Positions 953 through 20,640 of a stretch of 24,000 nucleotides of DNA are shown here, piece by piece. The translations under genes and the position numbers were made by a program. This DNA comes from Sphaerochaeta globosa str. Buddy. Its GTDB lineage: Bacteria; Spirochaetota; Spirochaetia; Sphaerochaetales; Sphaerochaetaceae. The stretch covers positions 230,458 through 254,457 of the forward strand of contig NC_015152.1 in assembly GCF_000190435.1 (NCBI RefSeq). Reading direction: 5' to 3'. Positions within the stretch are counted from its first letter, which is position 1; every line of letters starts with the position of its first letter. The notes below the pieces were generated by a model that was not told the DNA's origin, did no database searches, and worked only from the letters and a program-made list of their open reading frames with translations.

Positions 953-3049
953 TTAACGAATACAACATAGTGTTGCTGGTTTGTCTGCACCAAGCATCCT
1001 GCTTCGTGCATCCATTTGGCTCGACCCTGCATACAGGGTATATCCCCCACGTACAGCATATCGGTTTCCATCCTCTTGGACAGCGGTGAACTGTTTTTCC
1101 TCGAGGATGAACGTAATCTGAGTTTCCTCACCTGCTTTCAGATGCACACTTTTCATGCCGCACAGCACAGGATGGGGTGGAAGGTCCTTCCCTTCCATGG
1201 CAAGGTACAGCTGCACCACCGTCCTTGCATCGAGTGCTGAAGTATTGCGTACCAAGACAGTTGCTGCAACCCCGTTTTGCTCAGTCTCCTGTGCTGCCGA
1301 CAGGCAGAAGGAGAAGGATGCATAGCTAAGGCCGAAGCCGAAGGGGTAGAGCACATCTGGATCATCGCAGTAGCGGTAGGTCCTTCGTATAAGCGAGTAA
1401 TCGGTGAAGGGGGGAAGCTTTGCCTCGGCCTTGTAAAAGGTTACCGGCAGCTTTCCCGATGGGCACAAAGCGCCATACAACAGGTGAGCGATCGCCTTGC
1501 CTCCCTCTTGTCCGGGATACCACGCTTGGATGAGGGCCTTCACATTGGCATACTGCTCGATTTCAGGGTCGAGGCTTCCTCCGCTGAGCAGCACCACAAT
1601 AATGGGCTTACCGGTTTCGGCTACTGCCTTCAGCAACTTTCGCTGACACAAGGGGAGCCGTAAGTCGTCCTTGTCACCCGCCCAACCTCCGTTGCCGTCG
1701 TCGTGCATCTCGCCTTCCACTGTCTCGTTCAGCCCCAGGCACAGCACCACTACATCACTGGCTTTGGCCATGAAAACAGCCTCGCTGAGTCGGTCGTCAT
1801 CTTTGGCAAGCCGCTCCACCTTGTTCTTTGTCAGATTCGATCCTTCACTGTAGAGAATTCTGGTAGAAGAACCGACATAGTCCCTCAGGCCTTCCAGAAT
1901 GGTCACATACCGGCTGGAAGTTCCGTGGTAGTTACCCCACAATGCCTGGCGGCTGTCGGCATTCGGTCCGATGACTGCAAGACAGGAAACAGCCTCCTTC
2001 TTCAGCGGAAGCAGAGCATCATTCTTCAACAGCACCAATGAGCGGCACGATGCCTCAAAGGCAAGAGCAGCATGCTCATCACTATCCAGACTCTCAAGGC
2101 CAAGCGTGTCATAGGCCGTGCCTTGGTCGAACTGCCCAAGCTTGAAACGGGTGGTCATCACCCGAATTGCTGCTTTTTTAATCTGCTCTCGGGTGATAAG
2201 GCCCTTCTGGAAGGCTTTCTCCAGGGACTGGTATTCACAGCCGCAGGCAAGGTCGCAGCCGCGCTTCAACGCTAGAGCTGCTGACTCCTCTTCGTTTTTG
2301 GTAACCTTGTGATTGAGGTGGAAGTCGCGGATCGCCCAGCAGTCGGAGATGTACATCCCCTCAAAGCCCCATCGGAGGCGAAGCGTTTCTTCCATCAAAA
2401 AGGAGCTTGCACAGCAAGGCTCATCGTTTAATGCACTGTAAGCGCCCATTACTGCATCGGCCTTTGCTTCCTTCACTGCAGATGCAAAGGCGGGAAGGTA
2501 TGTCTCCTCCAAATCCTTCTTGCCCACCACCGCATTAAAGCCGTGGCGCAAGGGTTCCGGCCCGCTGTGGGCGGCAAAGTGCTTTACGCAGGATGCTGTC
2601 TTGAGTACCGGGCCTTCACCCTGCAAACCTCTGATGAAAGCCACAGCAAGGCGGGCTGTCAAATAGGGGTCCTCGCCGAAGGTCTCCTGGCCGCGTCCCC
2701 AGCGGGGGTCGCGGAATATGTTCACATTCGGAGACCAGACGGTCAGGCCCTTGTAGATGTCACGGTCGTTCTCATGGGTAAAGAGGTTGTATTTTGCCCT
2801 TTGCTCGGTCGAGACGACAGAGGCAACAGCATACAGAAAATCGGGGTCGAAGAGGGAGGCAAGGCCGATGGCTTGGGGGAAGACGGTGGCGGTACCGCTT
2901 CTTGCAGAGCCATGCAGGCCCTCGTTCCACCAGTTGTAGGCAGGAATACCCAAGCTTTCGATGGCAGGAGCGTCATGGCGCAACTGGCTCATCATCTGAG
3001 GCAGGTTCATGCGCTCTACCAGCTCTTGTGCTCTCTGTCGTGCAGTCAT
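953..3049 (-). CDS. Glycoside hydrolase family 3 beta-glucosidase/beta-xylosidase
   Basis: The 698-aa ORF carries GH3 hallmarks: 'YNWWNEGLHG', 'KHFAAHSGPE', 'YISDCWAI' (the SDW-type nucleophile Asp context) and a C-terminal Fn3-like region ('VVQLYL'). It has no signal peptide, so it is probably cytoplasmic. Substrate (glucoside or xyloside) cannot be decided by eye. Confidence 0.9.
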   Translation of the reverse strand: MTARQRAQELVERMNLPQMMSQLRHDAPAIESLGIPAYNWWNEGLHGSARSGTATVFPQAIGLASLFDPDFLYAVASVVSTEQRAKYNLFTHENDRDIYKGLTVWSPNVNIFRDPRWGRGQETFGEDPYLTARLAVAFIRGLQGEGPVLKTASCVKHFAAHSGPEPLRHGFNAVVGKKDLEETYLPAFASAVKEAKADAVMGAYSALNDEPCCASSFLMEETLRLRWGFEGMYISDCWAIRDFHLNHKVTKNEEESAALALKRGCDLACGCEYQSLEKAFQKGLITREQIKKAAIRVMTTRFKLGQFDQGTAYDTLGLESLDSDEHAALAFEASCRSLVLLKNDALLPLKKEAVSCLAVIGPNADSRQALWGNYHGTSSRYVTILEGLRDYVGSSTRILYSEGSNLTKNKVERLAKDDDRLSEAVFMAKASDVVVLCLGLNETVEGEMHDDGNGGWAGDKDDLRLPLCQRKLLKAVAETGKPIIVVLLSGGSLDPEIEQYANVKALIQAWYPGQEGGKAIAHLLYGALCPSGKLPVTFYKAEAKLPPFTDYSLIRRTYRYCDDPDVLYPFGFGLSYASFSFCLSAAQETEQNGVAATVLVRNTSALDARTVVQLYLAMEGKDLPPHPVLCGMKSVHLKAGEETQITFILEEKQFTAVQEDGNRYAVRGGYTLYAGSSQMDARSRMLGADKPATLCCIR

Positions 3050-3077
3050 ACAGTCCTCTTCACACCCAATCTAAAGA

Positions 3078-3109
3078 ATCGGTTTCCAGGAGGAGACCCG
3101 GAAACCGAT
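3078..3109 (-). terminator. Intercistronic stem-loop between the SBP and GH3 genes (possible attenuator or mRNA-stabilising hairpin)
   Basis: A perfect 10-bp inverted repeat, ATCGGTTTCC (3078-3087) and GGAAACCGAT (3100-3109), flanks a 12-nt loop. On the minus-strand transcript it is followed only by a weak TCTTT run, so it is not a strong intrinsic terminator. Confidence 0.4.
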
Positions 3110-3133
3110 AAACAGTCGTTGTTCGCGTTTCTC

Positions 3134-4612
3134 TTAGCGAGCTGCGTTCAGTTCCTCAAGAATCTTCGGTCCGTTGATCGATTTCCAGAAGTTCTCGTAC
3201 TCGGCCATACCCTGCTCGAGGGAAACAGTCCCGACGATGATCTTGGTGGCGATGGATTCACGGGTGCTCTTGATCGAGGGAGCAACGCGGTCGTAGGCTA
3301 CCGAAACACCAACGGGGACATCGGCGGCATGGTTCGGGCCGAGGTTGGCCGACATAGCCTTGATGTGCTCGATCTGCTTGGGCAGACCCTGCTGCAATGC
3401 CGGGGTGAGCGCAAAGGCCAGGTTGTTGATGTCGATGTCGATGAACGAGTCGCTGAGGTAGTTGAGCGTATACTTGTATCCGCTGTTGGCTGCCTTGGCG
3501 CTGGGCACGATAGCCTTGTTTGCATCCAAGGTATAGTGCATGCCCTCAAGCCCGATACCGAAGAATGCGGGGTAGACTTCGCTGTCGGTGACGATAGTTT
3601 CCAGCACCTTCACCGCCGCATCGGGGTTCTTGGTTTTGGCAGAGACAACGAAGGCGGTCTGGGTGGCTTCGTTGAGGCTTCCGCCATAGCCCTCGGGACC
3701 TACGATTTTGTAGATCAAGTGCATCTCGGTGTACTTTTTCGCCGCAGTGGTGTTCTGTACGTAGTTGATATAGTTGGTTACATAGTCAATGGAAGAAGCA
3801 GCCTGACCGGTATAGGTCTTCTCACGCATGCCGCTGTTCTCGGTGGTGATGAACTCCTGGTTCAACACACCATCGGCGTACAGCTGGCGCAGGTATGCGA
3901 GGGCGTTCTTCATCTGCTGGGTCTGGAACCCATCAACAAAAGCTCCGTCGTTCAGGTAGACACCGCCCCATGCTCCGAAGGAGTTGTAGAAGAACTGGAA
4001 GTTGTCGACCCACTTGGGGAAGTTGAAGGGAATGATACCCTTGCCGACGAATTTTGCCATCTCGGTGCGGAACTCTTCGGCGGTCGGGGTATTGGAAAGC
4101 TTGACACCATACTGTTCCATCAGGTCCTTACGGATGAAGATGGCCTTGCTCTTGGGGTAGTTGTAGGGAACAAAGTAAGTCTTGCCGTCGATCTGCAGGT
4201 CCTTGAACAGGTTGGGATCGAGCTTGGAAAGGGCGGGACTGTTCTTGATGTAGTCGGTCAAATCAAGAATCTGCTCACGGGCTACCATGGTCGGAATCTT
4301 GGTCATTGCCTGGGCTACGACGAACAAGTCAGGGATGTCGCCGCTGTTTACCAGGGTGGCAAGCTTGTCGGTGTAGGAAGCAAGCGGGGGGATGATGGGA
4401 TTGATTTTCGTCCCGGTCTTCGATTCGATCAGGGCGGTAATGGCTCCCTGAAGTTCCGGGTCGGTACTCAGACCGTAGGTGTTGTCGGCAGTAGCGAGCG
4501 TAAGGGTCGGGATTTCAGCAACGACACTCTCTTTCTGTCCTGCAGCCACAACGGCAGTCAGACACAGTAGCAGGGTTGCAAGGGTAAGCAGTAAACGCTT
4601 GGTGTTCAGCAT
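3134..4612 (-). CDS. Extracellular solute-binding protein of an ABC carbohydrate transporter (large LplA/LipO-like class)
   Basis: This is the ORF 3134..4639 with the start trimmed to the ATG at 4612 (MLNTKRLLL...), which has GGAGG about 7 nt upstream. It has an N-terminal hydrophobic signal sequence with a Cys (LLLCLTAVVAAGQ). The roughly 490-aa size and composition fit the family-1 SBPs that pair with LplB/LplC permeases. Confidence 0.85.
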   Translation of the reverse strand: MLNTKRLLLTLATLLLCLTAVVAAGQKESVVAEIPTLTLATADNTYGLSTDPELQGAITALIESKTGTKINPIIPPLASYTDKLATLVNSGDIPDLFVVAQAMTKIPTMVAREQILDLTDYIKNSPALSKLDPNLFKDLQIDGKTYFVPYNYPKSKAIFIRKDLMEQYGVKLSNTPTAEEFRTEMAKFVGKGIIPFNFPKWVDNFQFFYNSFGAWGGVYLNDGAFVDGFQTQQMKNALAYLRQLYADGVLNQEFITTENSGMREKTYTGQAASSIDYVTNYINYVQNTTAAKKYTEMHLIYKIVGPEGYGGSLNEATQTAFVVSAKTKNPDAAVKVLETIVTDSEVYPAFFGIGLEGMHYTLDANKAIVPSAKAANSGYKYTLNYLSDSFIDIDINNLAFALTPALQQGLPKQIEHIKAMSANLGPNHAADVPVGVSVAYDRVAPSIKSTRESIATKIIVGTVSLEQGMAEYENFWKSINGPKILEELNAAR

Positions 4613-4750
4613 GGGATTCCTCCTCTCAGGTTTGCTCACAATGAGCAGTTGTAGGTAGTATAGGGGTCCTTTTTTCTCCAGTCGTTAGCAGAAAGGGAGA
4701 AATAGTTATACTTTTTCGTAGATACGGTCTTGTTCTTCAAAGCAATTGTT

Positions 4751-11328: not shown

Positions 11329-11721
11329 GTTTCTCCCTTGTGTACCACCGGCAGTAACGCTAGCAACGATTTTTTTGACAATAGCACAGAGAGAAAGGTT
11401 GTGGGAGCAGATACAAACGAACTTGCCCGAATTAATTGGCCGATAGCAGTTGGACATAGGCAACCGCGGCTACATGCCCCTATTGGCGCAGTTACCCCCA
11501 CAAATAGCACAAGGGAGAGATTTCTAGTCCCTCCCTTGGTCATCTGATGGTTACCAACACACCAACTGGATTTTCAGTCCTGTCTGCTTGAGGAAACGTT
11601 GGTTCCTCTTGTGTCATACTATACGCTATGATTCCCGAGCGTTCAAGTATTATTTTTACACTTGGTACTCGCTGGTATTTCATCTCTTGACCTCAAGTAG
11701 ATCTGCCTGCAGTATAGCGAT

Positions 11722-12540
11722 ATGAAGAAATGGAAGCGACCGGACAAGAAAAGTCTGAAACAGATGATCGTCCAGCGTGACAGTGCGCGCATCGTGCATT
11801 ATCTGTTGCGCTTGATCGTCATTCTCATCCTTATCGCCCAGGTGTTCAACAAGAATTACGAGAACGTGTTCTTGTGCATCCTGACGCTCATCCTCTTTTC
11901 CCTCCCTTCACTTATTGAAACCAATACCCGTATCGACATTCCCGATACGCTGGAAAACATCATTCTCTTCTTTATTTATGCTGCTGCAATCCTAGGGGAA
12001 ATGGGCTCCTATTATGTGACCTATCCCTTCTGGGATACGGTGCTGCATACAGCCAACGGCTTTCTTGCAGCAGCCATCGGCTTCTCATTGGTGGACATTC
12101 TCAATCAGAGCGAGCGCTTTTCAATCCGCCTCTCCCCACTCTTTGTTGCTATTGTAGCCTTCTGTTTCTCCATGACCATCGGGGTGGTCTGGGAGTTCTT
12201 TGAGTTTTCCATGGACATGTTCTTCGGTATGGACATGCAGAAGGATACCGTGGTAACCACCCTGCGTTCGGTCATGCTCGACCCAACCAAGAGCCAAAAG
12301 ATCGTGGTGATCAAAGGCATTGAGAACGTGATGGTCAACGGCAAGGAACTCGGGGTCGGAGGGTACTTGGACATCGGCCTTATCGACACCATGAAGGACT
12401 TGTTTGTCAACTTCATCGGAGCTCTGGTGTTTTGTGTGGCTGGTTTCTTCTATCTCAAGTACCGTTCCAAAAAAGCTTCCTTCATCAAGCGCTTCATCCC
12501 CACTTTGGTCGATAAGAAGCAGAATACAACAAACGAATAG
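11722..12540 (+). CDS. Multi-pass integral membrane protein of unknown function (possibly YjdF/DUF2238-like; family not securely recognised)
   Basis: The 272-aa ORF has at least 6 hydrophobic segments and a charged N-terminus. The 'PFWDTVLHTANGFLAAAIGF' motif is reminiscent of DUF2238-type proteins. There is no clear SD, so the start is uncertain. Confidence 0.6.
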   Translation: MKKWKRPDKKSLKQMIVQRDSARIVHYLLRLIVILILIAQVFNKNYENVFLCILTLILFSLPSLIETNTRIDIPDTLENIILFFIYAAAILGEMGSYYVTYPFWDTVLHTANGFLAAAIGFSLVDILNQSERFSIRLSPLFVAIVAFCFSMTIGVVWEFFEFSMDMFFGMDMQKDTVVTTLRSVMLDPTKSQKIVVIKGIENVMVNGKELGVGGYLDIGLIDTMKDLFVNFIGALVFCVAGFFYLKYRSKKASFIKRFIPTLVDKKQNTTNE

Positions 12541-12615
12541 CCCAGCAACTTTTCCATTGCATTAATGAACAAATAATGGTTAACTACAAATCAGAACAGA
12601 TTTGTGGAGTGGTAC

Positions 12616-13671
12616 ATGCAGGAAAAGCGGAACCTTATCGTAGCAGGAAGTCTTTTCGGAATCATAGCAGTCGGCCTGGTTGTCTTGGGCAACCCCGCCA
12701 ACATGGGCTTTTGCATCGCTTGTTTTTATCGAGACCTTGCAGGCTCACTGGGCTTGCACGCAGCGGCTCCTGTCCAATATGCCCGCCCCGAGATCATGGG
12801 CCTAATTCTTGGCTCGTTTCTGATCAGCTCCCTCAAAGGCGAGTTCAAGAGCAGGGGAGGTTCCTCTCCTGTTTTGCGTTTCATCATTGCTTTCTTTGTC
12901 ATGATCGGGGCGTTGGTGTTTCTCGGCTGTCCCTTCCGTATGATTCTTCGCCTCGCCGGCGGCGATCTTAATGCGTTGGTAGGCCTCGTTGGGTTTTCAG
13001 CAGGAATCGGGGTAGGAGCGATTCTCCTGAACAAGGGCTTCAGCCTTGGACGCAGTTATTCCCAGTCCAGGGCGGAAGGTAGTGCATTCAGCATGGCGGC
13101 TTTTGTGCTTGTCGGTATTGTCCTGTTCCTGCCCATGCTTCTGAAGGCAAGCACCTCAGGACCGGGCAGCCAGCATGCCCCCCTTCTCATCTCTCTACTC
13201 GCAGGTCTTATCGTAGGCTCTCTCGCCCAGCGTACAAGGCTGTGCATGGCTGGAGGCATTCGCGACCTCTTCCTCTTCAAGGATCCTACGTTGCTGCTAG
13301 GCTCGGCCGCAGTCTTGGTAACCGCCCTCATGCTCAATTTGACCACCGGCTCCTTCAAGCTGGGCTTTACCGGCCAACCCATCGCCCATACCCAATGGCT
13401 GTGGAACTTTTTGGGCATGGGCTTGGTCGGCTACGGATCGGTACTGCTCGGTGGTTGCCCCCTGCGCCAGACCATTCTGGCAGGAGAGGGCAACAGCGAT
13501 AGTGCCGTTACGGTATTGGGCTTTCTCGCAGGAGCTGCAGTAAGCCATAATTTTGGGCTTGCCTCCTCAGCCCAAGGAGCCACCACCGCAGGAAAGATTG
13601 CCACTCTCATCGGCTTTGCTGTCATAACCCTCATTGCCTTTGCCGTGATGAGAAAACAAACAAGGAGCTAA
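12616..13671 (+). CDS. yedE: YedE-family putative selenium/sulfur-compound transporter
   Basis: This polytopic membrane protein has the 'GFCIACFYRD' Cys motif and 'GGCPLRQ' typical of the YedE/FdhT-like family. It lies directly upstream of yedF, DUF3343 and selD. I set the start at the ATG at 12616 (GGAG 6 nt upstream) rather than the GTG at 12604. Confidence 0.8.
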   Translation: MQEKRNLIVAGSLFGIIAVGLVVLGNPANMGFCIACFYRDLAGSLGLHAAAPVQYARPEIMGLILGSFLISSLKGEFKSRGGSSPVLRFIIAFFVMIGALVFLGCPFRMILRLAGGDLNALVGLVGFSAGIGVGAILLNKGFSLGRSYSQSRAEGSAFSMAAFVLVGIVLFLPMLLKASTSGPGSQHAPLLISLLAGLIVGSLAQRTRLCMAGGIRDLFLFKDPTLLLGSAAVLVTALMLNLTTGSFKLGFTGQPIAHTQWLWNFLGMGLVGYGSVLLGGCPLRQTILAGEGNSDSAVTVLGFLAGAAVSHNFGLASSAQGATTAGKIATLIGFAVITLIAFAVMRKQTRS

Positions 13672-13676
13672 CTACC

Positions 13677-13886
13677 ATGCAGATAGTAGACACCCGCGGG
13701 CTTTCCTGCCCCCAACCGGTCATAGAGACCAAGAAAGTCATCGATACCAAGGAAACAGAGCTTCAGGTGTTGGTGGACACCATCGCCGCCAAGGAGAACG
13801 TCAGCCGCTATGCAAAGGCAGCCAAGTTCTCGGTAAGCGATACCAAGACAGCGTACGGCTGGTCGTTGGAACTGAAAAAGCTATGA
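13677..13886 (+). CDS. yedF: YedF/TusA(SirA)-like sulfur/selenium carrier protein
   Basis: The 69-aa ORF has the N-terminal 'DTRGLSCPQPV' CPxP active-site motif of TusA/SirA-like proteins. AAGGAG lies upstream. Confidence 0.85.
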   Translation: MQIVDTRGLSCPQPVIETKKVIDTKETELQVLVDTIAAKENVSRYAKAAKFSVSDTKTAYGWSLELKKL

Positions 13887-14113
13887 AGCAGTACATCGCC
13901 ACCTTCTACGACCATTGGGGAGCTGTGCAGTTCCGATCCCATGCCAAGTCACAGGGTATAGCCTGCACCCTCAAGCCGGTTCCCCGCACTCTTTCCTCCT
14001 CCTGCGGCACCTGTGCCTGGTATGAGGGCGAGGGCTGGGACATTGGTTTTAGCCCTGCAGATTTGGAAGCAGTCTTTAGACAGGAAGGCACGCACTACGT
14101 GAAGGAAGTGTAG
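13883..14113 (+). CDS. DUF3343-family small protein (putative Se/S carrier associated with selD)
   Basis: The 76-aa ORF starts with an ATGA overlap on the yedF stop. The segment 'KPVPRTLSSSCGTC' resembles the conserved Cys-containing core of DUF3343. Its position between yedF and selD is characteristic. Confidence 0.7.
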   Translation: MKQYIATFYDHWGAVQFRSHAKSQGIACTLKPVPRTLSSSCGTCAWYEGEGWDIGFSPADLEAVFRQEGTHYVKEV

Positions 14114-14115
14114 TA

Positions 14116-15141
14116 ATGGAATCAGTCAAACTCACCCAGATGGTGAAAACCAGCGGCTGTGCGGCCAAATTGCCTCCCAAGCTGTTGCATGAAGTACTGG
14201 ACAGTATAGGCTGGATGCATAGCCCGGACCTCGTGGAAGGGTTTGAAGGAAGTGACGATGCTTGTGTGTACCGCCTGCCGATAGGCAATAACCTGGTGAT
14301 GCTGCAGACTGTCGACTTCTTTCCTCCCATGGTCGACGACCCCTACCTGTTTGGTCAGGTAGCGGCTGCAAATGCCCTCAGTGACATCTATGCCATGGGA
14401 GGAGAACCAAAGGTTGCACTGAATCTGGTTTGTTTTCCCTCCTGTTTGGACCTCTCTGTTCTTAGACAGATTCTGCTGGGCGGCCAAAGCAAGGTTACAG
14501 AGAGCGGGGCTGTTATTGCAGGCGGGCATACGATCAGCGACCCGACTCCCAAGTATGGGCTCTGTGTTACCGGCTTTGCCCCTGAAGACAGGGTCTGGGC
14601 AAACCATGGCAGTAAGCCTGGGGATGTGCTCATTCTCACCAAGTCCTTGGGTGTGGGCATTGTCAACACGGCAGTGAAGGCAGGCCTTGCAAGCAAGACA
14701 GCCCAACAGAAAGCCGTCTTAAGCATGACTACCCTGAACAAGGCTGCCTATGAGGCTGCTCGAACCAAAGACGTGCATGCTGCCACTGACATTACCGGCT
14801 TTTCTCTACTGGGCCATGCTCAGGAAATGGCAACAGCCAGTAACGTCACCCTGCTTCTCAATGCTCAGAGCATCCCTGTGATAGAGGAAGCCTTGGAGTA
14901 TGCAAGCATGGGCTTGAACCCAGAAGGGCTCTACAACAACCGAGAGTACCTGCAAGGCTCAGTCCAATTCCAAAGAACACTCGAGCAGGAACTGGAGGAC
15001 ATACTCTACGATCCCCAGACCTCCGGAGGATTGCTGTTGAGCATGAGCAAGGCCGATGGCCTGGCTTATAGCCAAGAAACAGGCTATCCGATCATAGGTG
15101 AGGTGGTAGAGAATGCAGAATCTCCGTTGTTGGTTGTGTGA
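14116..15141 (+). CDS. selD: Selenide, water dikinase (selenophosphate synthetase), Cys-type
   Basis: The 341-aa ORF has the N-terminal active-site loop 'KTSGCAAKLPPKLL', with a Cys codon TGT rather than TGA/Sec. The AIR-synthase-like fold motifs 'DDACVY', 'TVDFFPPMVDDPYLFGQVAAANALSDIYAMGG' and 'GGHTI' are present. Confidence 0.92.
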   Translation: MESVKLTQMVKTSGCAAKLPPKLLHEVLDSIGWMHSPDLVEGFEGSDDACVYRLPIGNNLVMLQTVDFFPPMVDDPYLFGQVAAANALSDIYAMGGEPKVALNLVCFPSCLDLSVLRQILLGGQSKVTESGAVIAGGHTISDPTPKYGLCVTGFAPEDRVWANHGSKPGDVLILTKSLGVGIVNTAVKAGLASKTAQQKAVLSMTTLNKAAYEAARTKDVHAATDITGFSLLGHAQEMATASNVTLLLNAQSIPVIEEALEYASMGLNPEGLYNNREYLQGSVQFQRTLEQELEDILYDPQTSGGLLLSMSKADGLAYSQETGYPIIGEVVENAESPLLVV

Positions 15142-15213
15142 TAAGTCGGGTAAGCATTGCTTCTCGGGGCAGTATATCCATAATTGCCGTGCTGGGTTTC
15201 GGACTGTAGGAAG

Positions 15214-15245
15214 AAGGGTTTCGATACGTCGAGCCCTTATTTTTT
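15214..15245 (+). terminator. Probable rho-independent terminator of the selenium operon
   Basis: The arms AAGGG (15214-15218) and CCCTT (15234-15238) enclose an inner TCGA/TCGA pairing. An A followed by a run of six T (15240-15245) comes next, about 70 nt after the selD stop. Confidence 0.45.
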
Positions 15246-15366
15246 ACTCCAGTGGTCTGTATATCTTACTTGAATTTCCTCCAGCACAAATCCCGGGGAG
15301 GTTGCGTTCTCATCGGCCTTGCTCTTTCCAGCCAATGTGCGCATAGCGGTGGAATGTAAAGATTAA

Positions 15367-15414
15367 TACCTTGCGTGTAGCGGGTTTTTGTGATAATATT
15401 ACCTTGCGTGTAGC
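15367..15414 (+). promoter_or_regulatory. Promoter/operator of the first island ATPase gene: two perfect 15-bp direct repeats flanking an extended -10
   Basis: TACCTTGCGTGTAGC occurs at 15367-15381 and again at 15400-15414, 33 bp apart. Between the copies lies TGTGATAAT (15389-15397), which is an extended -10 of the form TGnGATAAT. The ATG at 15443 follows. Confidence 0.45.
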
Positions 15415-15442
15415 ACAGGATTGAAGCCGGGGGGATGTCCTG

Positions 15443-16813
15443 ATGGAAATTAAAAGAAACACATACAACAGAATCCTTGAGTGGAAGAAGCAGGCCAATG
15501 GAACGAAAGCTCTCTTAATTGAAGGAGCAAGGAGAATTGGGAAATCTACTGTGGTAGAGGAAATAGGAAAGAATGAATATAAATCCTTCATTATGGTTGA
15601 TTTCAATAAAGCAAGCACGAAAGTCAAAGATTGTTTTAATGACTTGAATAACCTAGATCTCTTTTTTCAGACTCTTATGCTGGAATACAATCAGCGACTC
15701 TACAGAAGAGAATCCTTGATAATTTTTGATGAAATCCAAAAGTTTCCAAAGGCAAGGGAAGCCATTAAATATCTTGTTGCAGACGGAAGATATGATTACA
15801 TAGAAACTGGCTCACTGATTTCCATTAGGGAGAATGTAGAAGGGATAACCCTGCCTTCGGAAGAAAGAAAGATTACAATGCATCCTGTGGATTTTAAAGA
15901 ATTCATGATGTATATGGGTGAAGGTATTCTGCTGGAATATATTGGCGACTGCTATAGGAGAAAAGTGCCACTAGAACAGAGATTCCATAGCAAGGCAATG
16001 CATCTCTTCAAAGAGTATCTTCTTGTCGGGGGAATGCCGCAGGCTATTGTAGCTTTTGCTTCAAACGGAAGGGATTTTGAGGCTGCTGACATTGAGAAGC
16101 GGGATATCCTTTCGCTATATCGCGATGACATCAAAAAAGCGGCCAAAAAATACAGCTCACGAGTATCCGCAGTATTTGAAAACATACCAGCTTATCTTTC
16201 AACGCATGAGAAAAGGATTGTTTTGAATGAACTCGAGAAAGATGGTCGTTTTAGTATGTATGATGAGCCTCTGTTCTGGCTGGAAGACTCGATGATGTGC
16301 AATCTCTGCTACAAGTGTAATGATCCAAATGTAGGTCTGGCCCTTAACAAGAATGATTCTTATGTGAAGTGTTATATGGGTGACACCGGTTTGCTGACTT
16401 CCTTGGCATTCAGTGAAAACGAAATCGCTGACCAGCAATTATATAAAGAAATCCTGAATGATAAGCTTTCCTTGAATGAAGGGATGCTGTATGAAAATGC
16501 TATTGCGCAGATGATTACTGCCATGGGAAGGAAACTGTACTTCTACACAAGGTATAGTAATGAAAGGCATCGAAATGACATTGAAATAGATTTTTTGATT
16601 TCAAATGAACGAAAAACCAATTACAGGATTAATCCAATAGAGGTTAAATCATCGAAAAATTACACGTCTACATCTTTAGGAAGATTCAAGGAAGTGTTTG
16701 GTAGGAAGATTGAGTATCAGATGATCATTCATCCAAAAAATTTCTCGGTAGTTGATGACATCATAAGAATTCCTCCTTATATGCTATGGGCGGCCTTTGA
16801 AAACTTTTCTTGA
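15443..16813 (+). CDS. AAA+-type ATPase with C-terminal PD-(D/E)xK-like nuclease-fold domain (AAA_14/DUF4143, COG1373-like)
   Basis: The 456-aa ORF has Walker A 'GARRIGKST' and Walker B 'LIIFDEIQ'. The C-terminal 'DIEIDFLI...(14 aa)...IEVKSS' fits a D...ExK nuclease motif. The coding sequence is AT-rich, roughly 38-40% GC in the lines I sampled. Confidence 0.8.
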   Translation: MEIKRNTYNRILEWKKQANGTKALLIEGARRIGKSTVVEEIGKNEYKSFIMVDFNKASTKVKDCFNDLNNLDLFFQTLMLEYNQRLYRRESLIIFDEIQKFPKAREAIKYLVADGRYDYIETGSLISIRENVEGITLPSEERKITMHPVDFKEFMMYMGEGILLEYIGDCYRRKVPLEQRFHSKAMHLFKEYLLVGGMPQAIVAFASNGRDFEAADIEKRDILSLYRDDIKKAAKKYSSRVSAVFENIPAYLSTHEKRIVLNELEKDGRFSMYDEPLFWLEDSMMCNLCYKCNDPNVGLALNKNDSYVKCYMGDTGLLTSLAFSENEIADQQLYKEILNDKLSLNEGMLYENAIAQMITAMGRKLYFYTRYSNERHRNDIEIDFLISNERKTNYRINPIEVKSSKNYTSTSLGRFKEVFGRKIEYQMIIHPKNFSVVDDIIRIPPYMLWAAFENFS

Positions 16814-16821
16814 CAGGTACA

Positions 16822-17016
16822 AAAAGTCTCCAGTGGATTACCGCAAAAGTCTCCAGTGGATTACCGCAAAAGTCTCCAGTGGATTACCGCAAAAGTCTCC
16901 AGTGGATTACCGCAAAAGTGTCTCCAGTGGATTACCGCAAAAGTCTCCAGTGGATTACCGCAAAAGTCTCCAGTGGATTACCGCAAAAGTCTCCAGTGGA
17001 TTACCGCAAAAGTCTC
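16822..17016. repeat. Tandem array of a 23-bp direct repeat (8 full units plus a 9-bp partial unit)
   Basis: The unit is AAAAGTCTCCAGTGGATTACCGC. Units start at 16822, 16845, 16868, 16891, 16914, 16939, 16962 and 16985, with a partial unit at 17008. All are identical except the fifth, which has a 2-bp GT insertion (25 bp). Each unit contains the palindromic core TCCA-G-TGGA. The array begins 9 nt after the ATPase-1 stop and ends 8 nt before the -35 of the next gene. Confidence 0.97.
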
Positions 17017-17024
17017 TTTTTTTA

Positions 17025-17053
17025 TTGATTAAGTTTCTGTGGGATAGTATGAT
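17025..17053 (+). promoter_or_regulatory. Sigma70-type promoter of the second island ATPase gene
   Basis: TTGATT (17025-17030), a 17-nt spacer and TATGAT (17048-17053) are followed by AGGAG (17068-17072) 5 nt before the ATG at 17078. A T7 run lies immediately upstream, at 17017-17023. Confidence 0.55.
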
Positions 17054-17077
17054 GTAATAGCCAGAGCAGGAGAAAAA

Positions 17078-18343
17078 ATGAGCCAATATCTTCCTCGTGT
17101 GATTGATACATTATTAGAAGAATACTTGGAAACTTTTGGAGCTGTTTATATCCGCGGACCGAAATGGTGCGGAAAAACAACCACCGCAGAGCAGAAAGCA
17201 AAGAGTATTGTTAGATTTCAAGACCCTAAAACTGGGGCATCCAACCAGATGATGGCAGAAATTGATCCATCACTATTGCTGAAAGGAGATAACCCAAGGC
17301 TTCTCGATGAATGGCAACTTGTTCCGCAAATCTGGGATGCAGTAAGGCTGCAAGTTGATGAGTTGAAAGCTGAAGGTTTGTTTATTTTAACTGGCTCTAC
17401 AGTTCCCGTTGATGATGATCAGCGTCATTCTGGAACTGGACGAATTAGTAGGTTAACTATGAGGCCGATGAGTCTCATGGAATCTGGAGATTCTAGTGGA
17501 AAGGTTTCCTTATCTTCTTTGTTTCTTGGTAAGACGTTTGAATCGGGGATATCATCCAGCTTGACAATACCTCAATTAGCGTATGTCATGGTTCGAGGAG
17601 GGTGGCCAGCTTCTATTGGTAAATCTGAAAGAGCTGCAGGACTCATAGCACAAGAATATCTTGTTTCTTTGACGGAAAGCGATCTTTCAAAAACCACAAA
17701 GACTCAAAAAAATCCAGGCCGTGTGCATGCTCTTCTTCGGAGTTATGCACGGAACATTTCGACCCTGGCTACTAATGAGAGTATAATCAAAGATATCTCA
17801 GAAAATGATATATCATTTTCTGAATCTCTTTTTTATGAGTATCTTAATGCATTGCAAAGGCTTTATGTTATAGAGGATGTCTCTGCCTGGAATCCGGCAA
17901 TTCGTTCCAAAACTGCTATTCGGTCACGCTCGAAACGAGAGTTTGTCGACCCTTCTCTCGCTGTTGCAGCACTAGGCCTAAGTCAGGCTATGTTGCTTGA
18001 TAACCTCGAGTATATGGGTTTTGTTTTCGAGACACTCTGTATTCGGGATTTGCGGATATATTCACAACAGTTCGGAGGAACAGTCTCCTACTACCATGAC
18101 AGGTATGAACTTGAATGTGATTGTGTGCTCCATCTTAGGGATGGACGATATGCACTTATTGAATGTAAGTTGGGTGGTAGCCGGATAGACGAAGGCGCTG
18201 CCCACCTGCTTGAGCTCAACTCGCTCATTACCCAGCATGGTATGAAAAAGCCCTCCTTCCTCATGGTGCTTACAGCAACTGACATAGCCTATATCAGAAC
18301 TGACGGTATTCTCGTTGTTCCTATTGGATGTTTGGGGACTTAA
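17078..18343 (+). CDS. AAA+-type ATPase with C-terminal PD-(D/E)xK-like nuclease-fold domain (AAA_14/DUF4143, COG1373-like); divergent paralog of 15443..16813
   Basis: The 421-aa ORF has Walker A 'GPKWCGKTT' and Walker B-like 'PRLLDEWQ'. The C-terminal 'ELECDCVLHLRDGRYALIECKLGG' fits a D...ExK motif. Its last codons and stop (..GGGGACTTAA) lie inside the duplicated flank of the transglutaminase-like gene. Confidence 0.8.
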   Translation: MSQYLPRVIDTLLEEYLETFGAVYIRGPKWCGKTTTAEQKAKSIVRFQDPKTGASNQMMAEIDPSLLLKGDNPRLLDEWQLVPQIWDAVRLQVDELKAEGLFILTGSTVPVDDDQRHSGTGRISRLTMRPMSLMESGDSSGKVSLSSLFLGKTFESGISSSLTIPQLAYVMVRGGWPASIGKSERAAGLIAQEYLVSLTESDLSKTTKTQKNPGRVHALLRSYARNISTLATNESIIKDISENDISFSESLFYEYLNALQRLYVIEDVSAWNPAIRSKTAIRSRSKREFVDPSLAVAALGLSQAMLLDNLEYMGFVFETLCIRDLRIYSQQFGGTVSYYHDRYELECDCVLHLRDGRYALIECKLGGSRIDEGAAHLLELNSLITQHGMKKPSFLMVLTATDIAYIRTDGILVVPIGCLGT

Positions 18344-18570
18344 CTCTGTCTCAACTTTACTATGGATTTATTGATCGTAGGCCTCAGAATCTTCTGATAG
18401 CGTAGGCTTCGGGTTCTCTCTTGTGCTTCTGGATAGCTTGGAAGAAGGCATCCGGATCGTCATAGGTTCCCAGCGTCTCGTGCTTTGGATGAAGGTATCC
18501 CATTCCTTCCAGCGGATCGGGGGGTGAAAGGTCAAAGGTACGGGAGTGCAATGCATACCTGAAGAGGCTT
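18340..18570 (-). pseudogene. Frameshifted remnant of the 3' end (about the last 75 codons) of a transglutaminase-like gene, paralogous to 20413..21129
   Basis: The two overlapping ORFs 18368..18556 and 18384..18590 each carry pieces matching the C-terminus of the 238-aa protein: 'PPIRWKEWDTFIQS' versus 'PPIHWEEGDTFIQS', and 'TLGTYDDPDAFFQA' is identical. The tail reads RYQKILRPTINKSIVKLRQS* versus RYQKILRPALNKSITKLRQL*. Relative to the intact copy there is a 1-bp deletion at 18436/18437 and a 6-bp deletion. Confidence 0.85.
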
Positions 18571-18742
18571 GGTTGTACCTTGCTGAACAAGCTTGAGCGA
18601 GAGGTTCAGTTCAGAAATGCGAAAGAGCCTGCCTTGGCCGAAGTCCAGACACTCTCTTTCGCGTTATTGAATTTTGATTCTCACAACATCTAGTGAAATA
18701 TTCTCAAATCCACTCAGTGTTACAGTTGAGAAGATTTAAGAA

Positions 18743-18823
18743 AATTTGAGAAGAATTTATGAATATTACATAAAATTTATGAAATTGATATTAAATTTGT
18801 GATTTTACCAATTGAATTTGAGA
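18743..18823. repeat. Helically phased 9-bp motif AATTTRWGA (5 copies) in the AT-rich tract upstream of the AlbA_2-type gene
   Basis: The copies are AATTTGAGA at 18743, AATTTATGA at 18754, AATTTATGA at 18774, AATTTGTGA at 18794 and AATTTGAGA at 18815. Spacings are 11, 20, 20 and 21 bp. A TTGACT hexamer follows at 18830-18835. Confidence 0.6.
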
Positions 18824-18878
18824 TTTTGGTTGACTTACCACTCTGGGTGTGCCATGGTAGCAATAGGAGGAGATCCTT

Positions 18879-20342
18879 ATGCTGCCGTGCGAACTTGAAA
18901 CATTGGTTGATGATATCGTTCATCTGCGTTGTGAATCCCAACACATTGAATTGAAGCGTTCACAGACTGAAGCACCCAAACGCCTCTATGACACCTTGTC
19001 GAGTTTTTCCAATCAGAAAGATGGGGGCATAATCATTTTCGGCGTCTATGAACACAATAATTATTCAATAACTGGCGTTGATGACCCTCAGGCTGTCCAA
19101 CAGCAGGTAAACAACCAAGCCAAGCAGATGGTCCCGATAGTCAGACCGGTATTCACGGTGGCAGAGATTGATGGCAAGGAGGTAGTGAGCGCAGAGATTG
19201 CAGAGTGCCCCATCATGGAAAAGCCCTGCTATTATGCTGGAGCCGGACGGTTGAAAGGCTCTTATATCAGGGTTGGTGATTCAGATGAGCCCATGACTGA
19301 ATATGAAGTTTACAGCTTTGAGGCTTTTCGTCAGAACATCCAGGATGAGAAGTTCCCTGCACTGAATGCCACCATGGATGATTTGAGCAGTGATAGGCTG
19401 ACTGAGTATATGCTGAAGATCAAGAGGTTCAAGGAGAATCTCTCCCAGCTTTCGCTGGAAAAAGTGCTGCGACTTCAGGGCATCACAGTCAATGGGGTGC
19501 CCACAGTAGCCGGACTGATGCTTTTCGGAGAATATCCTCAGGCATTCTTCCCGCAGCTCAGCATAACCGCCATGGTTATCGCCGGCAATATGTATTCTGA
19601 TATTAGCCAGAATGATGAACGCTTTGTTGATAACAAGCGTATCGAGGGCACAATTATCCAGATGTATGAAAGTGCCATGAAATTTATAAGCCGCAATACC
19701 CGGCAAGCAACAATCATCAACGAGAACGGGGAGCGCAACGACAGACCGGAATATCCGCTCAAGGCAGTCCGCGAGCTGGTACTCAATGCCCTGATTCACC
19801 GTGACTATAGCATTCATACCATTAATTCGCCGATACGTATTCTGTTGTTTAACAACCGTTTGGAGATTGAGAACCCAGGAGGCCTCTATGGGCGGATTAC
19901 CATTGATGAGTTGGGAAAAATGTCTGCAGATACCCGCAATCCATTCATAGCGGGTGCACTTGAAGTTTTGGTAGAGACAGAGAATCGTTTTTCCGGCATA
20001 CCTACCATCTATGCTGAGATGGAGAAGGCTCATTTGCTTCCGCCTGTATTTGAAAGCCAGCGCGGTGTATTTAGGGCCACGCTCTACAATCAGGGTAGCT
20101 TATCGATGAATCCTGATGCTGCCAATGATAGTGAATCCTCGATCATGAAAAAGATTCTTTCATTCTGCTCAGAGCCGCGTTCAAAGGATGAAATTGCAAA
20201 GCATATCGGCCTTTCCTCTGTGTATTACATCACCGCGAGGTATCTTCATCCCTTGCTTGAAAGTGCTCAGCTGAGAATGACTCTGCCCGATAGGCCCAAG
20301 AGCAAACATCAACGTTATGTTGCAGCACAGAGCAGAATCTGA
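18879..20342 (+). CDS. AlbA_2 (Schlafen-like) DNA-binding domain plus HATPase_c_4 ATPase-like domain plus C-terminal wHTH protein (often annotated as 'RecG-like' or putative transcriptional regulator)
   Basis: The 487-aa ORF has AGGAGGAG upstream of the ATG. The N-terminal 'ESQHIELKRS...LSSFSNQKDGGIIIFGV' matches the AlbA_2 pattern. The central 'LVLNALIHRDYS...IRILLFNNRLEIENPGG' matches HATPase_c_4. The C-terminal 'ILSFCSEPRSKDEIAKHIGLS' looks like a wHTH. Confidence 0.8.
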   Translation: MLPCELETLVDDIVHLRCESQHIELKRSQTEAPKRLYDTLSSFSNQKDGGIIIFGVYEHNNYSITGVDDPQAVQQQVNNQAKQMVPIVRPVFTVAEIDGKEVVSAEIAECPIMEKPCYYAGAGRLKGSYIRVGDSDEPMTEYEVYSFEAFRQNIQDEKFPALNATMDDLSSDRLTEYMLKIKRFKENLSQLSLEKVLRLQGITVNGVPTVAGLMLFGEYPQAFFPQLSITAMVIAGNMYSDISQNDERFVDNKRIEGTIIQMYESAMKFISRNTRQATIINENGERNDRPEYPLKAVRELVLNALIHRDYSIHTINSPIRILLFNNRLEIENPGGLYGRITIDELGKMSADTRNPFIAGALEVLVETENRFSGIPTIYAEMEKAHLLPPVFESQRGVFRATLYNQGSLSMNPDAANDSESSIMKKILSFCSEPRSKDEIAKHIGLSSVYYITARYLHPLLESAQLRMTLPDRPKSKHQRYVAAQSRI

Positions 20343-20406
20343 ATTCATGATGTACAACCACTTCGTCTGTTAATACGAGCACGGATAGCGTCTTGGCCGT
20401 TCCCCT

Positions 20407-20640
20407 GGGGACTTAAAGCTGCCTTAGTTTTGTAATGGACTTGTTGAGTGCAGGCCTCAGAATCTTCTGATAGCGTAGGCTTCGGGTTCTCTCTTGTGCT
20501 TCTGGATAGGCTTGGAAGAAAGCATCCGGATCGTCATAGGTCCCCAGTGTACCTGCACGCGCCTTGCTCTGGATGAAGGTATCCCCTTCTTCCCAGTGGA
20601 TGGGAGGGTTTCGGAAGTTCAACACTGCAATCCCATAGCC
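20407..20640. repeat. Second copy of a roughly 230-bp direct repeat (first copy 18334..~18560; offset 2,073 bp) with a 58-bp identical core
   Basis: The repeat starts at the shared TGGGGACTTAA just outside the stop codon. 20452-20509 is identical to 18379-18436 (58 bp: AGGCCTCAGAATCTTCTGATAGCGTAGGCTTCGGGTTCTCTCTTGTGCTTCTGGATAG). Similarity is lower on both sides of this core and fades by about 20640/18560. Confidence 0.85.

Follow-up and report, generated by a model that had tools for sequence, protein, structure and literature searches.

Plasmid iterons, such as those of R6K, RK2 and pPS10, are tandem direct repeats of about 17–23 bp at a spacing of about 22 bp, and the direct repeats of parC/ParR and omega-type centromere-operators overlap a promoter, are bound cooperatively and double as an autoregulatory operator. 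The origin recognition boxes (ORBs) of archaeal Orc1/Cdc6 proteins are usually set around an unwinding element and not in a strict 23-bp tandem array. Here, we describe an array of 23-bp direct repeats in a 24-kb stretch of Sphaerochaeta globosa str. Buddy DNA (the window, by which we mean the whole stretch; coordinates are 1-based window positions), which stands directly before the promoter of the gene for ATPase-2, a fusion of an AAA+ ATPase and a PD-(D/E)XK nuclease. From comparison with related loci, its status as a conserved, promoter-coupled cis-element of this gene is close to established. Furthermore, we give about even odds (a probability of roughly 0.5) to the reading that it is an iteron-like operator, i.e., a row of tandem sites that would be bound by the predicted winged-helix segment of ATPase-2 itself and through which the protein would autoregulate its own gene.

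With its period of 23 bp and 8.4 copies, the array has the repeat geometry of iterons. Both are arranged head to tail with a period of about 22–23 bp beside the gene of a protein with a winged-helix domain (predicted in the case of ATPase-2), and in both, the sequences are specific to the locus and co-evolve with the protein, which the repeat copies can titrate (presumably so for the array). However, Rep and origin features are lacking here, the neighboring gene encodes an AAA+ ATPase–PD-(D/E)XK fusion, and the element occurs on chromosomes in varied contexts and is phase-locked to the gene's own promoter. The binders of parC and of omega-type operators differ as well, being small ribbon-helix-helix proteins with a partner NTPase that function in segregation, and such genes were not found in the genomic island that holds the array. 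Archaeal Orc1/Cdc6 with its ORBs (2qby) shares with ATPase-2 the combination of an AAA+ domain with a winged helix (predicted here) and repeated boxes beside its own gene, but the structural match reaches a TM-score (template modeling score) of only 0.24–0.26, ATPase-2 has a nuclease domain, and there is no link to replication. With ToxI/ToxN, the array has in common tandem repeats directly 5′ of a defense-associated gene and a variable number of units; the ToxI repeats are transcribed into a structured RNA, and a terminator precedes the toxin gene, whereas here a promoter follows the repeats and no RNA-structure signal was detected. Finally, STAND (signal transduction ATPases with numerous domains) factors share an oligomerizing P-loop ATPase with a DNA-binding domain, both traits being predicted here, and several direct repeats that immediately precede or overlap the -35 box (MalT boxes; SARP heptamer repeats, PMC5930380), but MalT and SARP proteins regulate other operons through short boxes at 10–11-bp phasing and have no nuclease, while the only conserved target here is the gene's own promoter.

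ATPase-2 belongs to PDC-S01, a single-gene "guilt-by-embedding" candidate that ranks as the fourth most common prokaryotic defense candidate, with approximately 39,000 detected instances, and is unvalidated, with no known ligand or mechanism (PMC12988326). Its DUF4143/COG1373 domain has been placed among the PD-(D/E)XK nucleases of unknown function (PMC3424549). We found no description of these repeats in the full-text literature on DUF4143, COG1373, PDC-S01 and AAA_14. While a direct-repeat operator or iteron-like array is an element of a known kind, its attachment to this ATPase–nuclease family, with the 23-bp spacing strictly conserved from phylum to phylum, seems to be novel. As a conserved gene-linked element, the array would offer a specific DNA target for PDC-S01 proteins and predicts autoregulation, and the findings suggest that native upstream repeats are worth including, or deliberately removing, in PDC-S01 assays. 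Moreover, the arrays explain why short-read assemblies break beside these genes.

In the window, Tandem Repeats Finder (TRF) reported a sole strong array (16822–17016; period 23, 8.4 copies, 97% matches, consensus AAAAGTCTCCAGTGGATTACCGC), and a pattern search recovered 7 exact units as well as the variant fifth unit, where 0 were expected from 100 shuffles. The same search across the 24 kb found no further copy of the unit outside the array at up to 3 mismatches. The array, its left boundary and the elements between it and the gene are as follows.

16822–17016, + strand: array of 8 full 23-bp units and a 9-nt partial unit (TRF and pattern search)
16822–16844, 16845–16867, 16868–16890 and 16891–16913, + strand: units 1–4
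16914–16938, + strand: unit 5, 25 bp, carrying a GT insertion
16939–16961, 16962–16984 and 16985–17007, + strand: units 6–8
17008–17016, + strand: partial unit AAAAGTCTC, 9 nt
17017–17023, + strand: T7 run
17008–17030, + strand: ninth, degenerate unit position AAAAGTCTCTTTTTTTATTGATT, the last six bases of which are the -35 hexamer TTGATT
16840–16850 (first) to 17003–17013 (last), + strand: conserved core ACCGCAAAAGT, 8 occurrences
16802–16821, + strand: left boundary motif AACTTTTCTTGACAGGTACA, 20 nt, containing the final codons of the upstream gene ATPase-1, its TGA stop and a TTGACA hexamer
17025–17030, + strand: -35 hexamer TTGATT
17048–17053, + strand: -10 hexamer TATGAT, after a 17-nt spacer following TTGATT
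17069–17072, + strand: Shine-Dalgarno sequence GGAG of ATPase-2
17078, + strand: start codon ATG of ATPase-2
17078–18343, + strand: ATPase-2, 421 aa, AAA_14 and DUF4143 (Pfam; PADLOC PDC-S01, 1e-54)

An earlier note, made from the letters of this DNA alone, had described eight 23-bp tandem repeats plus a partial unit, with a GT insertion in unit 5 as the single variant, and both statements are borne out by the TRF run and the unit coordinates. Its placement of the array start 9 nt past the upstream stop codon agrees with the TGA at 16811–16813, the array beginning at the 9th base past this stop, and the order that it gave for the elements after the array (T7 run, TTGATT-17-TATGAT and Shine-Dalgarno sequence) matches the coordinates; the architecture, with identical direct repeats abutting a promoter, is thus real. 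The GT insertion could be a true variant or an assembly or sequencing indel. An open reading frame (ORF) of 86 aa (16797–17057) crosses the array because the + strand of the unit has no stop codon; a coding repeat was nevertheless rejected, as 23 is not divisible by 3 and stop codons occur in other arrays.

The array travels with ATPase-2 (L-numbers denote comparison loci; L001 is Sphaerochaeta sp. UBA5849, L009 and L010 are long-read Sphaerochaeta assemblies, and many others come from a viral-contig collection, their host being uncertain). Nearly all relatives of ATPase-2, at 33–90% protein identity and in unrelated contexts in Spirochaetota, Bacteroidota, Actinomycetota, Chlorobiota and others, carry 3–14 direct repeats at exactly 23-bp spacing, and the element is found on chromosomes and plasmids alike, always before the ATPase gene. 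In L001, L005, L007 and L008, another PDC-S01 ATPase gene (421–432 aa) stands 5′ of the array, and the repeats, a TTGATT-17-TAATAT promoter and the ATPase-2 ortholog are kept. Homologs with 73% aa identity reside at a different chromosomal site in L009 and L010 (contigs of 3.1 and 2.7 Mb), behind 13.8 and 13.7 units, respectively, of a related 23-mer, CAAAAGTCTCCGGTGGAATAGCG, that adjoin a TTGACA -35 box; the gene upstream of the L009 array lies on the opposite strand. Altogether, ATPase-1 is substituted by other genes or absent in L001, L005, L007, L008 and L009. The earlier description of the array as filling the gap between two ATPase genes therefore finds no support, since the upstream neighbor is exchangeable or on the opposite strand in relatives and the array belongs to ATPase-2.

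Farther afield, homologs with 62% and 59% identity that are solitary amid housekeeping genes each have 4 units with a period of 23 bp and differing sequences, the array of the latter being degenerate (75% matches), and no array was found for one homolog with 57% identity (from the L018–L020 set). The viral-contig collection yielded 34 further loci at 42–54% identity, approximately 30 of them with enough upstream DNA. For 17 of these approximately 30 homologs, TRF reported a period-23 array with 2.2–7.7 copies, and a layout in rows of 23 revealed at least 3 direct repeats in almost all loci, including those missed by TRF. A scan of the same collection for two cores 23 bp apart gave no match.

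Unit number varies from 1.7 to 13.8 across related genomes, with counts from short-read assemblies possibly reflecting collapsed repeats: besides the long-read arrays, 1.7 units were counted in L001, 2.6 in L008, 5.9 in L011, 8.9 in L007, at least 6.9 in L005 (up to the contig end) and at least 5.5 in L006 (from the contig start). This range fits the earlier suggestion that the array is copy-number variable. Several short-read contigs break at the array. The 8 near-identical units of the window are a recent, lineage-specific expansion of an element that normally has 3–5 units, with comparable expansions in L007, L009, L010, L022 and L045. Scattering over unrelated intergenic sites, as in a dispersed repetitive extragenic palindrome or minisatellite family, had been named as the finding that would speak against a role tied to the island; searches of public genomes and metagenomes recovered the unit at the syntenic locus alone, and the rest of the window is free of it. 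Specifically, the exact 19-mer GTCTCCAGTGGATTACCGC occurs in 1 species-representative genome and 4 metagenome contigs, all 5 at the syntenic locus (an exact search, which diverged copies would escape).

The 23-bp period is also evident from autocorrelation, which we computed at lags 8–59 over the 200 bp upstream of 30 non-redundant genes, with 914 windows from the same loci as controls. Lag 23 scored best in 21 of the 30 upstream regions compared to 10 controls (1.1%), and 2 of the remaining regions peak at lag 24 and another 2 at lag 46. A z-score of at least 3 was reached by 19 upstream regions and by a single control. Furthermore, 5 finished plasmids served as a sample for prediction in advance (Bacteroides uniformis, B. 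ovatus, two of Collinsella aerofaciens, and Prosthecochloris aestuarii; 33–50% aa identity): lag 23 was best in all 5 loci, each with 3–5 visible repeats.

After rotation of the unit consensuses, a common core of approximately (A)CC(G)CAAA emerges on the coding strand, in the window as ACCGCAAAAGT, although the most divergent arrays could be rotated into alignment only imperfectly. The unit sequences are locus-specific around this core, and the repeats run head to tail on the coding strand. Of the palindromic core TCCA-N-TGGA proposed earlier, only part stands: TCCAGTGGA is a true 4+1+4 palindrome in the window, but it is not kept in related arrays. As a functional core, TCCA-G-TGGA was rejected, being missing from L012, L015 and most other loci. 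The units are better conserved than their surroundings. Between the window and L009, 20 of 23 unit positions are identical, compared to 71.6% nucleotide identity for the gene and 50.8% for the spacer between array and ATG (51.1% when shuffled), and the corresponding values for L012 are 17 of 23, 67.5% and 57.4%. The array regions L009 4634–4951 and L010 4634–4950, with genes that are 99.4% identical, have 14 unit positions each; in 13 of the 14 L010 units, GGTAAAACAG or GGTGAAACAG replaces GGTGGAATAG, while GCGCAAAAGTCTC is unchanged. These changes amount to 2–3 substitutions at non-core positions in two blocks and, read from the two sequences, represent rapid concerted evolution that is confined to non-core positions and preserves length. 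L010 also has an insertion sequence (rve integrase, 2961–3881) to the left of the main array and a mini-array of 2.2 units (2420–2469) beyond it; the insertion seems to have cut the array region in two.

The position of the array relative to the promoter is equally constrained. TTGATT-17-TATGAT matches the consensus at 9 of 12 positions, and such matches are not enriched in the window (4 found vs. 8.1 in shuffles); the promoter is credible because its position is conserved in the orthologs. Arrays end 40–82 nt before the start codon, mostly 44–65 nt. In the window, the -10 hexamer follows the C of the last core CAAAAG at a distance of 41 nt, the corresponding distance is 40–42 nt in nine sigma70-type loci, and in six Bacteroidetes-type loci this C lies 43–44 nt before the TTTG of the -7 motif; in other loci, the distance between core and promoter is offset by approximately 11 bp. 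In both the window (TTGATT) and L009 (TTGACA), the -35 box occupies positions 18–23 of the terminal degenerate unit. Since a promoter motif lies between array and start codon in more than 20 loci, most of those compared, the most likely role of the repeats is one at the DNA level, upstream of the transcription start.

An AlphaFold2 model of ATPase-2, built from 27 aligned sequences (predicted local distance difference test 90.1, predicted TM-score 0.91), comprises an N-terminal P-loop domain, a helical region, a segment of three helices with beta strands at residues ~213–290, and a C-terminal alpha/beta domain that is assigned to the DUF4143 PD-(D/E)XK nucleases. Walker A (G27..K33 T34), Walker B (D77 E78) and D348/E362/K364 are invariant. 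Among the best Foldseek neighbors in the PDB are the Pyrococcus Walker ATPase PAB2304, ORC, Orc1/Cdc6 on origin DNA, STAND/NLR proteins, MalT (8bob) and Card1/Cdn1, all with low TM-scores; for 2qby and 7jk6, the probability is 0.99–1.00 but the TM-score only 0.19–0.26. From the model, we infer that residues ~213–290 form a winged-helix-like segment. A Pfam scan of residues 195–300 at relaxed E-value returned DUF4143 alone and no named helix-turn-helix (HTH) family, so the fold of this segment can only be called putative. The C-terminal fragment weakly matches Card1_endonuc and DUF234, and no solved relative was recovered from the PDB by sequence, whether with the single sequence or with a profile as query.

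Two protein subclades of the ATPase-2 clade are set apart by their predicted helix-wing region (NISTLA...PAIRS vs. xQGxQ...PNLRSKTAIRTSDTRY) and pair with two core types, ACC(G/A)CAAAA and GCCAA(A/C)T, respectively, which fits protein–DNA co-evolution. Other PDC-S01 clades have repeats of their own. Both ATPases of the window match the PDC-S01 profile hidden Markov model and have the AAA_14/DUF4143 architecture (PADLOC, Pfam), with ATPase-1 being a PDC-S01 paralog of a different clade from ATPase-2. The features of ATPase-1 and of the remaining island gene that bears on the argument are the following.

15367–15381 and 15400–15414, + strand: ATPase-1 direct repeats, two copies of TACCTTGCGTGTAGC with a period of 33 bp
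15443–16813, + strand: ATPase-1, 456 aa, AAA_14 and DUF4143 (Pfam; PADLOC PDC-S01, 8e-98)
18879–20342: gene of the AlbA_2 protein, with SLFN_AlbA_2, HATPase_c_4 and Fic-like_C (Pfam)

Members of the ATPase-1 clade (25–78% identity) have 2–4 repeats spaced 33–34 bp in the promoter region (L005 5075–5165; L077, L055, L058, L066), a spacing that exceeds 23 bp by approximately one helical turn; these relatives were obtained with an alignment query, a single-protein query with ATPase-1 against the viral contigs having given no match. The "middle" ATPase of L005 is preceded by a third motif, ACCGAWTGAA, present three times at 23-bp spacing. The 23-bp spacing and the 33–34-bp spacing of the sister clade would set geometric constraints on a possible oligomerization along DNA. 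Many homologs of both ATPases are known only from contigs that barely exceed gene length (1.4–1.8 kb), as expected if assemblies break at repeats on both sides of these genes.

ATPase-2 is our proposed binder because it is the sole constant companion gene of the array, because the motif is gene-specific and because of its likeness to winged-helix AAA+ proteins that act on repeated boxes. Each unit would be a binding site for the winged-helix-like segment of ATPase-2, taken as an Orc1/Cdc6- or STAND-like AAA+ protein, with protomers aligned every 23 bp as far as the -35 box, and occupancy of the array would set the transcription of ATPase-2. As to the sign of this regulation, we lean toward autorepression via occlusion of the -35 box, with activation of the MalT/SARP type also possible. 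Changes in unit number by slippage or unequal recombination would then alter the set-point or the quantity of protein retained at the locus. Comparative data thus favor what had been suggested for this array at the outset, a cooperative binding platform through which an island protein autoregulates, and narrow the candidate to ATPase-2, because the array accompanies that gene alone through unrelated contexts and phyla. The winged HTH of the AlbA_2 protein, also put forward then, gains no support, as L011 retains the array without an AlbA_2 gene.

Several points weigh against autoregulation by ATPase-2. The winged-helix assignment comes from a predicted model with a TM-score of only 0.24–0.26 to Orc1/Cdc6, and the covariation of subclade and core could be explained by shared ancestry alone. 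Two clade members, L019 and L034, are without a clear array, and several contigs end at the array, with unit counts affected by possible collapse. One PDC-S01 coding sequence alone gave E. coli no protection against T7, T5 and T4 (PMC12881386). Moreover, in the two Collinsella plasmids (L083 and L084), the gene of a small HTH regulator lies immediately upstream of the array, and its product could be the binder there. It is indeed conceivable, if rather unlikely, that the array is in general an operator at which some protein other than ATPase-2, be it a host regulator, ATPase-1, the AlbA_2 protein or a small HTH protein, controls the ATPase-2 promoter, and all evidence for a promoter-coupled cis-element applies equally to such a binder. 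However, the array accompanies the ATPase gene alone across unrelated contexts and phyla, and the individual candidates fare poorly: L011 keeps the array in the absence of an AlbA_2 gene, ATPase-1 is replaced or absent in the five loci listed above, and a shared host factor is at odds with the different motifs of paralogs within one genome. A further possibility, to which we assign a slim chance, is that the array serves for docking or assembly, as a platform on which an inactive oligomer or filament would be stored, or else a "self" mark or the substrate of the PD-(D/E)XK domain, with infection releasing or activating the protein. The nuclease triad is conserved beside a putative DNA-binding segment, arrays of 8–14 units in Sphaerochaeta seem to go beyond the needs of a promoter switch, and the periods of 23 and 33–34 bp, about one helical turn apart, would give neighboring sites an equal angular offset. 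In one form, likewise improbable, the array would be a chromosomal assembly site, at which a helical AAA+ filament on its own promoter holds a toxic nuclease inactive and dose-controlled until infection; protomers would sit every 23 bp (33–34 bp in the sister clade) with a shared offset of about one-sixth of a turn, and 8–14 units would enlarge the reservoir. If true, an immune nuclease would here be licensed in a novel manner, by a "self" DNA array dedicated to it. Such a platform is, however, purely inferential, most family members have only 3–5 degenerate units, and the fixed phase to the -35 and -10 boxes points to an interplay with RNA polymerase.

A functionless minisatellite, arisen by replication slippage in an intergenic gap, would account for the near-identical units, which resemble a young expansion, for the copy number varying among relatives and for the short-read assemblies that break there; it is strongly disfavored, as degenerate units, which slippage would not maintain, keep the 23-bp period in homologs with as little as 33% aa identity, and as the core is conserved and the promoter phase fixed while the flanking non-coding DNA is randomized. 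That the array acts as RNA, be it a ToxI-like type III antitoxin, a 5′ leader or the 3′ untranslated region (UTR) of ATPase-1, we regard as very improbable. Tandem repeats directly 5′ of a defense-type gene do recall ToxI/ToxN, a T7 run follows the array, and no terminator was predicted between ATPase-1 and the array, which makes read-through possible in the window. Yet neither strand has a better folding energy than shuffled sequence (z -0.32 and +0.21), no Rfam family matched in an E-value scan of 15100–20500, neither a G+C-rich hairpin before the T run nor a terminator-like site in or after the array was found, and the Pfam scan of the island genes revealed no toxin of the ToxN, AbiQ, CptN or TenpN type, while promoter motifs lie between array and start codon in sigma70-type and Bacteroidetes-type loci. 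The 3′ UTR variant was rejected, as the upstream gene differs or diverges in relatives and is on the opposite strand in L009. We attach least credence to a plasmid-type iteron origin or a parC/parS-like centromere of an integrated element, classes to which the array had initially been likened. Unit length and spacing of approximately 22–23 bp and the head-to-tail arrangement beside a promoter would suit such an element, as would an island G+C content below that of the surroundings. Membership in either class was not borne out, however, with Pfam scans of the island genes finding no Rep, ParA/ParM or ParB/ParR/ParG gene and with DnaA-box matches at chance level, none of them within 12400–19600 or within 2.5 kb of the array, and the element occurs on chromosomes and plasmids, always before the ATPase gene.

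The island itself (approximately 15200–20400) has a G+C content of 40–47%, compared to 50–57% in its surroundings, and follows a SelD-like gene, with 11704–15256 being 81% identical at the nucleotide level to Sphaerochaeta sp. UBA5849. Relatives of ATPase-1 reach 77–80% aa identity, some of them named Lachnospiraceae or Tyzzerella, which together with an island G+C content about 10 points below the surroundings suggests a recent cross-phylum transfer. Contigs L069–L076, with an ATPase-1 that is 99% identical, run on into another ATPase module, and their homology to the window ends precisely where the array begins on its left side (16821/16822); the locus is thus a string of exchangeable modules, each consisting of repeats, promoter and ATPase gene, with the window lacking the middle one. 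In these contigs, the AACTTTTCTTGACAGGTACA motif ends ATPase-1 and is followed by other DNA. A stretch of 23 nt running from AACTTTTCTTGACAGGTACA into the first unit adjoins the array in L010 as well (4616–4638; 22 of 23 matches), and neither an ATPase-1 gene nor a remnant of it was found beside it there. The motif may be a boundary element or a recombination scar. The 450-aa PDC-S01 gene of Sphaerochaeta sp. UBA5849 (L001 1503–2851) is split into a 192-aa ORF with AAA_14 and a 254-aa ORF with DUF4143, i.e., it is a frameshift or a pseudogene.

A direct repeat of ~200 bp (82% identical; 18333–18525 and 20406–20609), each copy starting with TGGGGACTTAA, brackets the AlbA_2 gene, and in L011, which is without this gene, ATPase-2 is directly followed by a transglutaminase-like gene. 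The AlbA_2 gene thus resembles an insertion that has a duplicated part of the 3′ region of the transglutaminase gene on each side. Just upstream of its start at 18879, TRF reported short direct repeats (18726–18802) with periods of 10, 20 and 21 bp, making it another defense-type gene with promoter-side repeats. Finally, a perfect 26-bp palindrome, TCAGAAAATGATATATCATTTTCTGA, lies within the coding sequence of ATPase-2 (17798–17823) and was flagged on both strands by the terminator scan.

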